Counted from the first letter of the stretch, positions 41,908 to 49,296 are shown. The stretch: 64,000 nt of DNA from Erysipelotrichaceae bacterium (GCA_015058955.1 SVBJ01000004.1:29382-93381); one strand, 5' to 3'. Translations and numbers: made by a program. Notes: generated by a model from the sequence alone, not told the origin.

Positions 41908-42522
41908 ATGAACCGGAGGTTTCCCTTGGCCAGCGAAAACAGCTTATCCATAGATGACATCAACATCAATGACAGCGATGATCAGCTGTATCATCAGTTT
42001 TTGCGCGGAGATGTCTCTTCTTATGATCAGCTGATGATCCGTTATGGCGACAGTGTGACCTTTTACATTAACGGTTATACCAATAACCTGCGGGACGGGG
42101 AGGATCTGATGATCGAAGCCTTTGCCCGCATAATGATCAAGAAGCCGTTCGTTCAGAAAGGGGCCTTTAAGGCCTATCTGTATAAGACAGCCCGAAATCT
42201 GGCGCTGCGTTTCTGTGAAAAACGAAAGGGAGTAACAGTATTCGGACTGGATGAGCTTAACAGGGAGTTATCTGATTCCATTCTGTCGGATCAGGGGACC
42301 GGTGATGGTGAGAAAGAGGCCATATTACACATGTGCCTGGAAAGGATCGATCCGGAATTAAAGGAAGCCCTATGGCTGGTATACTGTGATGAGCTGACTT
42401 ATGCGCAGGCAGCTGAGGTAATGCATGTATCAGTCAAGAGAATAGACCATCTTCTTTCCCGAGGGAAAGAACACATGCGCAGAGAACTTAGAAAGGAGGG
42501 TATCAGCAATGCGTACAAATGA
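41908..42522 (+). CDS. ECF-type sigma-70 family RNA polymerase sigma factor
   Basis: Region 2 (GEDLMIEAFARIM…FKAYLYKTARNLALRF) and region 4 (LTYAQAAEVMHVSVKRIDHLLSRGKEHMRREL). The in-frame TTG at 41926, 6 nt after GGAGG, is a more likely start. Confidence 0.85.
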   Translation: MNRRFPLASENSLSIDDININDSDDQLYHQFLRGDVSSYDQLMIRYGDSVTFYINGYTNNLRDGEDLMIEAFARIMIKKPFVQKGAFKAYLYKTARNLALRFCEKRKGVTVFGLDELNRELSDSILSDQGTGDGEKEAILHMCLERIDPELKEALWLVYCDELTYAQAAEVMHVSVKRIDHLLSRGKEHMRRELRKEGISNAYK

Positions 42523-42847
42523 AGAAAGAATCAGATTAATGCATCAGAAAGCATTGCTGCTGGAGCAGGAAAACAGAGAAAAGAAAATCAGATGGCTGCA
42601 GTACGGCAGTGTCGGTTTGGCTTTTGCCATGACGATCCTTCTGGCACTGATAATGCCGCGCTTTGCCCAGCTCAGCATTGAGGGTGCCGTTCCTGACAAC
42701 ATGATCGCCAGCATCTTTGCCCAGAATAAGACTCTGTCTTTCATCATAATTGCGATCCTGTCTTTCATACTGGGAATTTCCGTAACGGTATTCTGCTACT
42801 GTCTGAAGAAGAGCACGGAAGAGAGGCATATTGATGTTTCTGATTGA
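42509..42847 (+). CDS. Putative anti-sigma factor (short cytoplasmic helix + 2 TM)
   Basis: 14-nt overlap with the sigma gene. MRTNEERIRLMHQKALLLEQ, then two TM segments. Assigned by position and topology only. Confidence 0.45.
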   Translation: MRTNEERIRLMHQKALLLEQENREKKIRWLQYGSVGLAFAMTILLALIMPRFAQLSIEGAVPDNMIASIFAQNKTLSFIIIAILSFILGISVTVFCYCLKKSTEERHIDVSD

Positions 42848-47500: not shown

Positions 47501-49296
47501 GCAATCCGTCAACTGAAAACAGAGAGGTAGGAGAATACACTCTTTACCTGGATGAAAGGGATGGCAGTCTGAAAGAAATTGCCATGTTAGCACCTTATAC
47601 GACAGAATACATTTTCAAGGATCTTGATGGACGTGATGCATATTCCTTCATGATCAGAGCCAGAAAAGATGTCAATGACAGCTTAGGAGGCATTGATTCC
47701 AACAGAGCCTATCTGTATCTGGGTGCACCGGCAATCCATTCCATTGAGCTGATTTCATCTGATCAGTCAAAGGATACCTACAAGCTGATCCATACCGACG
47801 GTACGATCACTGAATTTGTGGTTCGTCACGGCATCGGCATCATTGGCATTGAAAAGATATCATCCAGTGCAGACGGACTTACTGATACATATAAGATCAC
47901 CTTTACAGACGGAACCAGCATGGAATTCAATGTCACTAACGGCAGAAATGGTAAGGAAATCGAGTTAAGAGTCTTTACCGTTGAACTGTCAGGCAAGAAG
48001 ATAATCCAGTGGCACTATGTCGGTGAAACAGAATGGAGAGACCTTGTTGAAGTAAGTGACGTTGCCTTCATCGAAGGCAGAAAAGTAGAACTGCGCATTT
48101 CTGACGGCTACATTCAGTGGCAGTACGAAGGTGATGACACCTGGACCAATTTACTGGCTCTCAGTGAACTGAAGGGCGATAAGGGTGATAAGGGCAATGG
48201 CATAGAATCAATAGTAAAGAAAGGCTCATCTGAAGATGGCCTGATTGATACCTACACAATCACATATTCTGACGGTACAACCAGTGAATTCACGGTAACT
48301 AACGGTAAGGATGGTAAAGACGGAAAAGACGGTTTATCTGCTTATGAACTTGCGATCAAGAACAATCTGTTTACAGGCAGTGAGGCCGAATGGATCGCCT
48401 CACTGGTCGGTAACGGCATCGGCATTGAGAAAATTGAAAAGACCGGTACTTCTGAAGACGGTCTGACAGATAATTACGTCATAGTCTTTACCGATGGCAG
48501 TTCATATCCGTTTACTGTTACCAACGGTGCCAAGGGTGATCAGGGCAATGGAATTGTCTCCATTGAAAAGTCATCCACTTCTGAAGATGGTCTGACTGAT
48601 GTCTATACGATCACATATTCCGACGGAACAAAGACAACGTTTAATGTTGCCAATGGCAAAGACGGCAGTGACGGTGCTGACGGAAAGTCTGCTTATGAAA
48701 TTGCCGTAGAGAATGGCTTTAAGGGAACGGTAGCAGAATGGATCGCCTCACTTAACGGTATCAGCGTAGTTAACACTCAGATAAATGATAAGGGCAATCT
48801 GATCGTGACCATGTCTGACGGATCAACCGTTGATGCCGGTAAGGTAAACGGTAATGACGGTGTCGGCATCAGAGAAACCAAACTCAATGAAAAGGGAGAA
48901 CTCATCGTTACTCTCACTAACGGCGATTCCTTCAACCTGGGTGTCATCGTCGGTGCTGCCGGAAGAAACGGTACGAATGGCCAGAATGGCGTTAACGGCC
49001 AGGACGGTAAGGACGGTGTCGATGGCAAGGATGGCAAAGACGGAAAAGATGGAGCTGACGGTAAGGACGGAGCCGGAATAAGCGGTATTAAAATCGATGA
49101 AAACGGTAACCTGATCGTCAATCTGACAGACGGCACGGTAATCAATGCCGGCAGTGTCGTAAACAGTAATCCTGCACCTGCCAATTCTGTTCCTTGGTGG
49201 ATGTTGGCCTGGAACGGTGCCTTAACGGCCGGTTTGGGAGGTGTCAGCTATGGATATATTTCCCAGAAAAAGGCTGCTAAAAAGAAAGAAGACTGA
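44503..49296 (+). CDS. Giant (1597 aa) tail-anchored surface protein: FG-GAP propeller-like head, unknown beta-rich domain, Fn3, tail-fibre-like repeats, collagen-like triple-helix segment
   Basis: Signal peptide (aa 1-36, …VVHA/EE). Ca-loop motifs GDYDKDGKDS, GDLNGDGIDD, GDINGDGIDE, GNFDGNEEG. Fn3-like NIKLSWSNPS…YSFMIRARK. Repeats xGIxxIEKxxxSEDGLTDxYxIxYSDGTxxxFxVxNG. GXY x14. C-terminal TM followed by KKAAKKKED. No LPXTG. Confidence 0.9.
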   Translation: MKKGSTFLKRGIIAILMLSMMFTGVFSAFTGSVVHAEEDEDNTGKAIYEQVEAMGNRNPRDWGSDKDPFGYGKDVPFYLNQQQELLILKSKGVSGGNNMKSYDTFKSGNINYPFNGAKSTWDKNINGKYTLSFIRSVAFDPSGSGRKDHVAYIGIYSKENNDPDDNPPLIQIWVMDKNGRTSDRIDITDAVWMCDSYTYNNRNMWDFNAMNFIDITAGDYDKDGKDSLVVWACGTKPTLREVACTVKSSGISLSIRSGDGYPDDDGSLFLKPYTHKTGDEMVYNRIHGAIDTGDLNGDGIDDLVVLSYVNRVKDELRNKVTEYYLPNLAVSYGVAGSSTAIVRGENAVRHVYACWSDGYEWREAPAAAGLAVGDINGDGIDEAVVAGFFHEIKGILGEAVNKPYNILDPEKLVVSIHGKDLRQLLVQRDLPTNEWTRGAAGYGGLFLKDSTEGDHSWQQTGVETVAINGKGRPEHIFINGTLYTVNGSKLSAVYTGDYFKKADKGMDGMPTEETYIRSMAVGNFDGNEEGYEQIAYVIGGADHDNVGNAKYTQGMMGGIYKKDGAVSQTAVDYYSTDPDVMADNYYPSSSSSCELKDVLSYELTAWDTDSDGLRVKYIGKSFNYTDPTVMAVLQAPPYFEELKGAMTGYETAYTITTSYSYATGEGKSTSFSIGAELEVEAEVVKLNAELSYATSWEKTFTDELTTSDEYTFKAIGEDQVVLYRTPVTSYTYQVEVNGNFSDANTTTLSFPGIPSKALMSLKDYNAFVEYYNAENQRRAEREGLSGEVPKMKKINDQYLGNEGDPFGYMQDTDDHSNVTILQTTPNSFEVGSSSTGYAWSQEHSASEEETMEHGFNFGFSMMFQLRSPVGHTGVGLAVKTSLEYMESTSVSETNAKGKGISCEVGNMDPESLEEMNVSKVTANQYGFSYQLVTWPSGIKSIENLEDWEHDEDEPSTKTVDVPIYGYLLSGTKAGAPMVNDLYGEFVKDDSNAINIKLSWSNPSTENREVGEYTLYLDERDGSLKEIAMLAPYTTEYIFKDLDGRDAYSFMIRARKDVNDSLGGIDSNRAYLYLGAPAIHSIELISSDQSKDTYKLIHTDGTITEFVVRHGIGIIGIEKISSSADGLTDTYKITFTDGTSMEFNVTNGRNGKEIELRVFTVELSGKKIIQWHYVGETEWRDLVEVSDVAFIEGRKVELRISDGYIQWQYEGDDTWTNLLALSELKGDKGDKGNGIESIVKKGSSEDGLIDTYTITYSDGTTSEFTVTNGKDGKDGKDGLSAYELAIKNNLFTGSEAEWIASLVGNGIGIEKIEKTGTSEDGLTDNYVIVFTDGSSYPFTVTNGAKGDQGNGIVSIEKSSTSEDGLTDVYTITYSDGTKTTFNVANGKDGSDGADGKSAYEIAVENGFKGTVAEWIASLNGISVVNTQINDKGNLIVTMSDGSTVDAGKVNGNDGVGIRETKLNEKGELIVTLTNGDSFNLGVIVGAAGRNGTNGQNGVNGQDGKDGVDGKDGKDGKDGADGKDGAGISGIKIDENGNLIVNLTDGTVINAGSVVNSNPAPANSVPWWMLAWNGALTAGLGGVSYGYISQKKAAKKKED
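47734..48690 (+). repeat. In-frame ~40-45-aa tail-fibre-like modules (at least 5 copies) with two SAYE(L/I)A…AEWIASL linkers
   Basis: IEKISSSADGLTDTYKITFTDGTSMEFNVTNG, IVKKGSSEDGLIDTYTITYSDGTTSEFTVTNG, IEKTGTSEDGLTDNYVIVFTDGSSYPFTVTNG, IEKSSTSEDGLTDVYTITYSDGTKTTFNVANG. Confidence 0.75.
48952..49077 (+). repeat. Collagen-like Gly-X-Y repeat (14 triplets), coding
   Basis: GAAGRNGTNGQNGVNGQDGKDGVDGKDGKDGKDGADGKDGAG, read directly in frame. Confidence 0.9.

Follow-up and report, generated by a model that had tools for sequence, protein, structure and literature searches.

Gene content and organization of the locus

A 64,000-nucleotide stretch of DNA from an Erysipelotrichaceae bacterium (GCA_015058955.1 SVBJ01000004.1:29382-93381), referred to here as the window and numbered from its first letter, carries six genes on one strand between positions 41,908 and 49,296. 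They encode an extracytoplasmic function (ECF) sigma factor, a small protein with two transmembrane (TM) segments (2TM-A), a seven-helix membrane protein (7TM protein), a PrsW-family protease, a paralogue of the small protein (2TM-B) and a giant surface protein. Related genomes carry the same cassette. Sequence comparison shows its gene content and order, a conserved promoter in an exclusive position, two distinct clades of 2TM proteins that have their N-terminal helix in common, a PrsW with intact catalytic residues and a variable secreted cargo. The cassette probably works like the sigmaW-RsiW-PrsW system of Bacillus subtilis, though its proteins lie outside those equivalog families, and, judged from the sequences, one or two of the small 2TM proteins probably hold the sigma factor in check. 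The locus comprises the following features.

41926-42522, + strand: ECF (group 4) sigma factor; the longest open reading frame (ORF) runs from ATG 41908 (204 amino acids, aa), the likely start is TTG 41926 (198 aa)
42509-42847, + strand: 2TM-A, 112 aa, candidate anti-sigma factor; N-terminal cytoplasmic helix MRTNEERIRLMHQKA, two TM segments by hydropathy
42834-43466 (alternative start 42831), + strand: seven-helix membrane protein of an undescribed family, 210/211 aa, with an AlphaFold2 model
43453-44073, + strand: PrsW-family intramembrane protease, 206 aa, Pfam PF13367
44102-44126, + strand: intrinsic terminator closing the sigma-PrsW operon; hairpin 44102-44118, AACCGGATTTTCCGGTT, then a T run
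44131-44174, + strand: conserved ECF-type promoter; -35-like GGGGAA 44134-44139, -10-like GTATCT 44155-44160, then the block ATATAAGTGAAAGG
44195-44506, + strand: 2TM-B, 103-aa paralogue of 2TM-A; N-terminal helix MRSDEERILLLHRKA; first gene of the putatively sigma-dependent operon and candidate feedback anti-sigma factor
44503-49296, + strand: 1597-aa secreted/surface cargo protein; its start overlaps the 2TM-B stop (ATGA)
49321-49348, no strand assigned: palindromic terminator-like hairpin 3' of the giant gene, AAAGACCGGAAGTAATCTTCCGGTCTTT, 12 pairs

The ORF list recovers the six genes, and the terminator, the three overlaps of 14 nucleotides (nt) each (42509-42522, 42834-42847, 43453-43466) and the ATGA junction (44503-44506) lie exactly where the original prediction, which was made from the sequence alone, had placed them. 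The overlaps and the ATGA junction argue for coupled translation.

The first gene had been recognized as an ECF sigma factor, and this assignment holds, but its start at 41908 does not. A GGAGG lies 6 nt 5' of TTG 41926, and genes called independently on identical contigs have this start (198 aa); hence, translation probably begins there. The protein matches PF04542 (Sigma70_r2; 33.2 against a cut-off of 24), PF08281 (Sigma70_r4_2; 45.4 against 25.7) and TIGR02937 (68.2 bits against 42.9) with regions 2 and 4 only, and by its sequence it is an ECF (group 4) member of the sigma-70 family. The closest solved structure is that of B. subtilis SigW (5wuq, E=7e-9). The protein is not a SigW equivalog, as it scores 43.2 against a cut-off of 209 with NF007223 and 37.4 against 243 with TIGR02948. 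The overlap between the sigma gene and the 2TM-A gene (42509-42522) is itself conserved in most related loci, and its bases encode the sigma C-terminus ..NAY(K/E)* and the 2TM-A N-terminus MRTNE in two frames. 2TM-B has the identical N-terminus although its gene is free of any such overlap.

Conservation of the cassette

Related loci were taken from the 80 best of 321 species-representative genomes with PrsW relatives, with up to 10 kb of flanking DNA; they are numbered here with the prefix L. They belong to Erysipelotrichaceae, Lachnospiraceae, Oscillospiraceae/Ruminococcaceae, Anaerovoracaceae/Mogibacterium and Eubacterium; the genomes inspected are mostly those of rumen and gut Firmicutes. 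Most are metagenome-assembled genomes (MAGs) from goat, sheep, buffalo, yak, cattle and deer, joined by two cultured Lachnospiraceae, bacterium G11 (L045) and bacterium P6B14 (L055). The PrsW gene of the window itself is present in identical form on rumen and gut metagenome contigs, and the closest genome records are Erysipelotrichaceae MAGs. Sixty of the 80 loci have sufficient flanking DNA and are termed evaluable. A word-index search yielded just 4 homologues of 2TM-A and 16 of the 7TM protein, and both families were assembled from the fetched loci.

Searches with phmmer, in which the six window proteins were compared with all ORFs of the 80 loci, find PrsW in 80 loci, the 7TM protein in 79, the 2TM family in 76-78, the sigma factor in 75 and the giant protein in 17. 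The 2TM family gives 128-132 matches, i.e., about two per locus. The genes usually follow one another as sigma, 2TM-A, 7TM and PrsW and then, across a gap of about 100-200 nt, 2TM-B and a large ORF. Among the evaluable loci, the 7TM gene adjoins PrsW in all 60, a sigma gene is present in 57 and occupies the canonical position in 53, and 2TM-A lies directly 3' of the sigma gene in 48. Of the 60 loci, 58 carry a second 2TM gene, which is placed directly 3' of PrsW in 50, and 41 show the fully canonical arrangement. The linkage of sigma factor, 2TM protein, polytopic protein, PrsW, 2TM paralogue and large protein, first noticed in a single genome, is therefore kept across Firmicutes families. Its recurrence in dozens of distant genomes puts the arrangement far beyond chance. 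That the genes are neighbours without any functional connection has a negligible probability and is contradicted by the gene overlaps, by the dedicated promoter motif and by an order kept in dozens of species of several families.

A dedicated promoter for the cargo operon

The regions upstream of the 2TM-B genes align without gaps on cGGGGAAt, 15 nt and GTATCT, followed by ATATAAGTGAAAGG. The motif, a.gcGGGGAatTttcg..TTTTatGTATCTaTATAagTGaAAGG, carries 36 bits of information and is ECF-like in shape: its -35 is rich in G/A and ends in AA(T/C), and its -10 reads (C)GTATC. A position weight matrix (PWM) of 44 nt and 36 bits was built from 45 genomes, excluding the two near-identical relatives of the window (L007, L008), and was applied to 64 kb of the organism's own genome and to at most 20 kb per related locus. 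On both strands of the window a single site reaches at least 12 bits, namely 44131-44174 with 38 bits, which ends 21 nt 5' of the 2TM-B start codon; the maximum in 20 shuffles of the window is 16.8 bits. In the related loci (1.06 Mb) 63 sites score 14 bits or more. At 53 of them a B-type 2TM gene follows directly, in a fixed register, and most of the other 10 are found just 3' of PrsW or sigma, or directly 5' of a large secreted protein. The original prediction had the regulatory genes wired to the giant surface protein. A conserved ECF-type promoter that stands in front of the giant operon and nowhere else in the window gives this idea direct sequence support. Since motif and sigma factor always travel together, we infer that the motif is recognized by the cassette's own sigma factor.

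The upstream regions of the sigma genes look different. A site of at least 14 bits occurs in 0/68 of them, and none is present upstream of the window's sigma gene. An exact TATAAT within 150 nt is found in 28/68 sigma-upstream regions versus 6/70 B-upstream regions. Absence of the motif suggests that the sigma operon is not autoregulated, and an autoregulatory promoter 5' of the sigma gene was rejected on this ground.

The distribution of sites also bears on how large the regulon might be. The sigma factor could serve a general, sigmaW-like envelope-stress response with a large regulon elsewhere, of which the adjacent surface-protein operon would be one target of many. SigW is indeed the closest relative among solved structures, and the scan covered only the DNA stated above. 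Yet there is one site in 64 kb, nearly every site in 1.06 Mb adjoins the cassette, and cassette and promoter travel together while the cargo changes. We therefore hold a general stress regulon to be quite unlikely.

Several details of the promoter region are worth recording. The block ATATAAGTGAAAGG (44161-44174 in the window, present in about 45 loci) is conserved across bacterial families directly 3' of the -10-like GTATCT. By its position it would span the transcription start and the first bases of the mRNA, and it may represent a start-site context, the site of a second regulator or an RNA element. In many loci the -35-like GGGGA box forms one arm of a GC-rich hairpin with a T run, for example CCGGGGAATTCCCGG TTTTT GTATCT (L017, L022, L025, L036, L040, L042, L044, L048, L050, L061, L064, L066, L080). 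In those loci the terminator of the sigma-PrsW operon and the -35 of the next promoter thus share bases. In the window, a small GGGAA/TTCCC hairpin (44135-44151) overlaps the -35-like box and the main terminator is separate. Two loci (L038:6497-8428 and L049:4665-8293) have a second copy of the motif before another large secreted protein, upstream of the sigma gene, from which read-through could provide positive feedback on the sigma factor.

Two clades of small two-TM proteins

2TM-A and 2TM-B share 24% identity (E=5e-11, a single pairwise comparison), and family-level matches confirm their paralogy. Members of both clades start with a near-invariant helix, MRT(N/D)EERIxxxHxRAxxL, in an N-terminal part of about 30 residues that precedes the first TM segment. 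A loop of about 20-25 residues ends with ASIF (A) or SSLL..GGY (B) and is followed by the second TM segment and a basic tail. Within the helix, R7, H12 and A15 are conserved at 90% or more across 2TM-A and 2TM-B. Neither clade matches any Pfam, NCBIfam or PDB entry.

The nearest neighbour of an A protein is another A protein in 58/61 cases and that of a B protein is another B protein in 70/70, with mean identities of 39% (A-A), 36% (B-B) and 25% (A-B). This clean split into two orthologous groups shows that the duplication is old and that both copies have been retained. In ten loci (L038, L054, L055, L062, L067, L071, L073, L074, L084, L086) the sigma gene is followed directly by the 7TM gene with no room for 2TM-A, and the sole 2TM gene is the downstream, B-type one; the promoter motif is present in 7 of the 10. 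Hence, 2TM-B is the core partner and 2TM-A a frequent addition, the opposite of what the original prediction had assumed. The downstream copy had been described as a duplicate of the upstream one: it is a paralogue, but it belongs to an old orthologous clade and is not a lineage-specific duplicate.

Which partner do the 2TM proteins serve? 2TM-A sits where the gene of an anti-sigma factor would be sought, immediately 3' of and overlapping the ECF sigma gene. Moreover, the N-terminal helix stays constant while the cargo varies, which points to a constant cytoplasmic partner, with the sigma factor as the obvious candidate. Binding of the 2TM proteins to the sigma factor would fit this pattern. 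Alternatively, the 2TM proteins might be partners of the cargo in the membrane, serving it as escort, anchor, insertion helper or protective factor, and control of the sigma factor might lie elsewhere, e.g., directly with the 7TM protein or with PrsW through a different substrate. Such a role would agree with their lack of similarity to any anti-sigma family, with the constant co-transcription and frequent translational coupling of 2TM-B with a large secreted protein, even where the gene order is swapped, and with the ten loci that have no copy in the classical anti-sigma position. It accounts less well for 2TM-A, which occupies the canonical anti-sigma position with a 14-nt overlap with the sigma gene in most loci, and for a cytoplasmic helix that is strongly conserved in A and B although the cargo is unrelated between loci, as expected of a conserved cytoplasmic partner and not of a cargo-specific one. 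On balance we regard a pure cargo-partner function as unlikely.

The protease and the seven-helix protein

The PrsW-family protein scores 55.8 bits with PF13367 (cut-off 23.5, 5.6e-15). In an alignment of 18 diverse homologues E70, E71, K74, E107, N108, H134 and H170 are invariant, and the motifs EELMK, LENVCY, MHMF and YHGIYN, on which the assignment to the family had first been based, fall on invariant columns. The subfamily comprises 1126 homologous clusters with relatives in 321 species-level genomes, and the protein is 50-60% identical across the loci. Its AlphaFold2 model is poor (predicted local distance difference test, pLDDT, 65; predicted template modelling score, pTM, 0.50).

For the 7TM protein AlphaFold2 predicts a seven-helix bundle (pLDDT 82.5, pTM 0.82). 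The original prediction of a polytopic membrane protein thus stands, with seven helices in place of the roughly six TM segments that had been counted. Foldseek against the PDB returns generic, non-significant seven-helix matches of the rhodopsin or GPCR type only (best E=0.013, TM-scores 0.45-0.66). There is no consistent Pfam match in 42 family members, and no PDB sequence is matched. Two candidate identities were rejected. A degenerate PrsW paralogue finds no support in BLASTP, which gives nothing, or in hhalign, which gives a probability of 0.3%. A microbial rhodopsin, which would have a retinal-binding lysine halfway along helix 7, is excluded because this helix (residues 182-209) has no lysine, and the Foldseek matches are non-significant. 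Conserved polar residues are N9, Q12, E164, Y165, S171, Y183 and D187. An exhaustive HMMER search of 1.84 billion representatives places 454 clusters in the family, and no fusions or extra domains are present among the best 150 of these 454, all of which are about 250 aa or shorter. From its sequence relatives, the family seems to be small, standalone and almost exclusive to the cassette. Our guess is that the 7TM protein acts as a sensor or regulator of PrsW.

A variable secreted cargo

The giant protein consists of a signal peptide, an FG-GAP-like N-terminal region, an fn3-like domain, four CFSR repeats and a collagen-like G-X-Y run, and ends with a hydrophobic anchor and a basic tail. The CFSR repeats and the G-X-Y run place it among the collagen-like surface proteins, and its FG-GAP character is putative. 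Of the family models, only CFSR (PF19079) passes, with 30.7 against a cut-off of 27, whereas fn3 stays under its cut-off, FG-GAP_3 (PF13517) reaches 20.8 against 26.9 and Collagen 24.8 against 27.2. Motifs visible in the sequence are three DxDGDGxDD-like sequences at residues 219, 294 and 374, a run of 14 G-X-Y triplets at residues 1484-1525 and four DGLxDxY repeats. The protein has no match among PDB sequences, and no DNA tandem repeats of the kind that might permit phase or length variation were found in its gene. On one metagenomic contig that is otherwise identical (L002:11348, window 44800), AAA is replaced by TAA at codon 100, and the gene is broken into parts of 99 aa and 1461 aa. Either a sequencing error accounts for this, or the contig carries a natural null allele.

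Homologues of the giant protein fill the same slot in 17 loci, and other large secreted proteins do so elsewhere. These range from 500 to more than 3100 aa and carry Listeria-Bacteroides repeats, InlB B-repeats, Big_2/Big_3, beta-helix repeats, GLUG, F5/8 type C, a Cthe_2159-type carbohydrate-binding domain or, once, a dockerin. Signal-peptide-like N-termini are present in 39/50 cargo proteins, and complete ones have a median length of 1186 aa. In four loci (L013, L021, L045, L062) the operon reads promoter, cargo, 2TM, so that cargo and 2TM gene stay together though swapped. The giant operon had been proposed as a target of the sigma factor, and the adjacent promoter agrees with this; the giant protein specifically is not the conserved target, as different large secreted proteins fill its slot.

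In giant-family cargo the C-terminus is tripartite, with PWW..AWNxLLTGG, a Gly/Ala-rich hydrophobic stretch and a basic tail (window 49180-49296, residues ~1560-1597). The same arrangement occurs in the cargo of L008, L009, L011, L012, L015, L039 and L081. In sequence it resembles a dedicated sorting signal, and LPXTG is absent from giant-family C-termini. Across all cargo proteins the C-termini vary between the PWW..AWNxLLTGG anchor, sortase-like xTGD anchors, Big_2 ends without an anchor and a dockerin.

These termini are relevant to a further explanation, in which PrsW and the 7TM protein form a maturation or release protease that cuts the C-terminal membrane anchor of the surface protein and has no part in signalling. 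PrsW-family peptidases have been proposed as processing peptidases of secreted toxins (PMC3482391), and the common tripartite C-terminus of giant-family cargo with its likeness to a sorting signal would suit such an enzyme. However, cargo C-termini are not conserved across the cassette, whereas PrsW keeps its 50-60% identity; these differing ends argue against PrsW as a cargo-sorting enzyme. In addition, where the published systems have PrsW fused to a toxin, the cassette encodes it as a standalone core of 206 aa that is expressed with the sigma factor, not with the cargo. A maturation protease is therefore an explanation to which we give little credence.

A proposed proteolytic switch

We favour, with somewhat better than even confidence, a self-contained proteolytic switch of the sigmaW/RsiW/PrsW type that brings its own protease, drives a replaceable output gene and is fed back through a sigma-dependent anti-sigma paralogue. 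The first operon (sigma, 2TM-A, 7TM, PrsW) would be expressed constitutively from a housekeeping-type promoter and end at the terminator. Inactive sigma factor would be kept at the membrane by the short cytoplasmic N-terminal helix that the 2TM proteins have in common. A signal from the envelope or surface, probably sensed by or through the 7TM protein, would activate the PrsW step, in which PrsW might cleave the 2TM protein within or close to the extracellular loop, a site-1 cleavage like that of RsiW by PrsW in B. subtilis. Further degradation by proteases encoded elsewhere, presumably including a site-2 protease, would free the sigma factor, which would then read the single GGGGAA-N15-GTATCT promoter just downstream and thus give rise to 2TM-B and the large secreted or surface protein. 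Newly made 2TM-B could re-capture the sigma factor, so that output would be pulsed or proportional to the duration of the signal, in step with the cargo. Within this scheme, the binding of the sigma factor by the 2TM proteins, their cleavage by PrsW, the part played by the 7TM protein, the kind of signal and the involvement of a site-2 protease encoded elsewhere are all conjectural. Compared with the original prediction, conserved linkage and promoter strengthen the general interpretation, and the origin of the second 2TM copy, the promoter of the sigma operon, the number of TM segments and the giant protein as the specific target have been revised.

Several observations speak against such a switch. 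Pfam and NCBIfam detect no anti-sigma domain (class I anti-sigma domain, zf-HC2, RsgI_N, DUF4179 and others) in 2TM-A or 2TM-B, no anti-sigma Pfam match appears in 47 family members even at E<=1, and a PDB profile search with the family retrieves no anti-sigma chain. The cytoplasmic part of the 2TM proteins is only about 30 residues long. PrsW scores 29.7 against a cut-off of 225 with NF033739, the equivalog model for the RsiW site-1 protease, and with a score so far under the cut-off its substrate could differ from the RsiW type. No cassette gene encodes a site-2 protease, a statement confined to the cassette, as the rest of the window and the genome was not searched. As for the promoter, no site reaches 14 bits in 13/60 evaluable loci. 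Moreover, the sites counted are of the very kind on which the PWM had been trained, which limits independent checks to the window site, the L007/L008 leave-out and the off-target rate. Finally, the sigmaW promoter consensus of B. subtilis is TGAAAC-N16-CGTA. The spacing between the -35-like and -10-like boxes of the cassette is about 3 nt shorter, and the assignment of the two boxes to -35 and -10 is thus a matter of interpretation.

A more far-reaching version would make the cassette a portable plug-in regulator for giant surface proteins, in which the 7TM protein gates PrsW as a new receptor-protease pair and 2TM-B is a checkpoint that reports export or anchoring of the cargo. We consider it an improbable extension of the proteolytic switch. 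If true, the cell would adjust how much of a costly surface protein it makes to the assembly state of that protein, much as FlgM export tunes the flagellar genes, and not through simple feedback.

Relation to known systems

The prsW gene of B. subtilis lies apart from sigW-rsiW, and sigW is subject to autoregulation. The cassette resembles the sigmaW/RsiW/PrsW/RasP system in its ECF sigma factor, to which SigW is nearest, in a membrane protein gene 3' of the sigma gene, in a PrsW with intact catalytic residues and in a -10-like (C/T)GTATC reminiscent of the CGTA of sigmaW promoters. Unlike in B. subtilis, the protease gene belongs to the sigma operon, and this operon has no promoter of the sigma's own type (0/68). 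Furthermore, the cassette adds a second, apparently sigma-dependent 2TM paralogue and an obligatory 7TM component, and its sigma factor and PrsW score far under the SigW and PrsW equivalog cut-offs. RsiW, the anti-sigma factor of SigW, is the classical PrsW substrate (PMC3482391). In contrast to RsiW, the candidate anti-sigma factor of the cassette has about 110 aa and two TM segments and is without a zf-HC2 or class I domain.

The structure of CnrH-CnrY illustrates that a very short cytoplasmic N-terminal segment with a membrane span can hold an ECF sigma factor (class II anti-sigma factors). By analogy, the very short cytoplasmic segment that precedes the membrane span in the 2TM proteins could suffice. 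They differ from CnrY-type proteins by the absence of sequence similarity detectable in the PDB profile search, by two TM segments instead of one and by belonging to a Firmicutes-specific family. With FlgM/sigma28, where the anti-sigma gene is read by the very sigma factor that its product inhibits, the cassette would share a candidate anti-sigma factor, 2TM-B, behind a sigma-dependent promoter and hence a negative feedback coupled to output. The likeness is confined to the logic of the circuit; the protein families are unrelated, and the cassette would employ proteolysis, not export.

In polymorphic toxin systems the PrsW domain is part of a fusion with a toxin or an RHS protein (Zhang et al. 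2012, PMC3482391). As in those systems with a PrsW peptidase, a PrsW-family peptidase is associated here with large secreted proteins. Unlike there, PrsW is encoded as a standalone 206-aa protein in the sigma operon, and the cargo has adhesin-like repeats and no toxin domain. SigI/RsgI, which serves cellulosomal genes in cellulolytic clostridia, likewise combines an alternative sigma factor, a membrane anti-sigma factor and large extracellular proteins in fibre-degrading Firmicutes, and one cassette cargo has a dockerin. In the cassette, however, the sigma factor is of the ECF type, RsgI_N and a carbohydrate-sensing extracellular domain are missing, and PrsW and the 7TM protein are encoded alongside. 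The original prediction knew of no described system of this composition, and a full-text literature search likewise found none; PrsW does not come up in the main text of the paper that re-classified the ECF sigma factors.

Flanking genes and other features

Beyond the cassette, the hairpin at 49321-49348 is reported on the minus strand only, where a T-rich tail, TCTTATTATT, follows the stem. Because of this tail it is scored as the terminator of the convergent minus-strand gene at 49366-49818, which encodes a Phage_holin_4_2-family membrane protein and runs towards the end of the giant gene. The stem is palindromic, and the hairpin might also end the giant operon, with no T-rich tail reported on the plus strand. 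Beyond the Phage_holin_4_2-family gene lie AddB/AddA-type helicase-nuclease genes (49894-55415). On the other side, two overlapping small ORFs on the minus strand (39913-40230 and 40220-40501; 105 and 93 aa) are situated between Acyl_transf_3 and Peptidase_S11 genes. Each has one hydrophobic segment and the common C-terminal motif AE(R/K)NVLYG(R/K); both are called as genes on all same-species contigs, and no Pfam hit is on record for them. An RNA-family search of 39500-50000 found no riboswitch or other RNA family.

Implications

ECF sigma factors are a major bacterial signalling system, and for most groups the signal, protease and regulon are unknown and the genes are scattered. The logic underlying the cassette (ECF sigma factor, membrane anti-sigma factor, regulated proteolysis) is familiar; the cassette itself is compact, testable and backed by strong comparative evidence. 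Sigma factor, candidate anti-sigma factors, PrsW, 7TM protein, promoter and output gene lie within about 3 kb (cargo excluded) in several hundred species-level genomes, so that the whole pathway could be reconstituted from one DNA fragment. The cassette would offer a defined substrate pair for PrsW-family proteases and brings in two families of membrane proteins that had not been described. Among ECF circuits it would be a rare case, with autoregulation of the inhibitor and not of the sigma factor. For the biology of the rumen, it points to a regulated, not constitutive, display of very large adhesin-like and dockerin-bearing proteins in Lachnospiraceae, Erysipelotrichaceae and their relatives.

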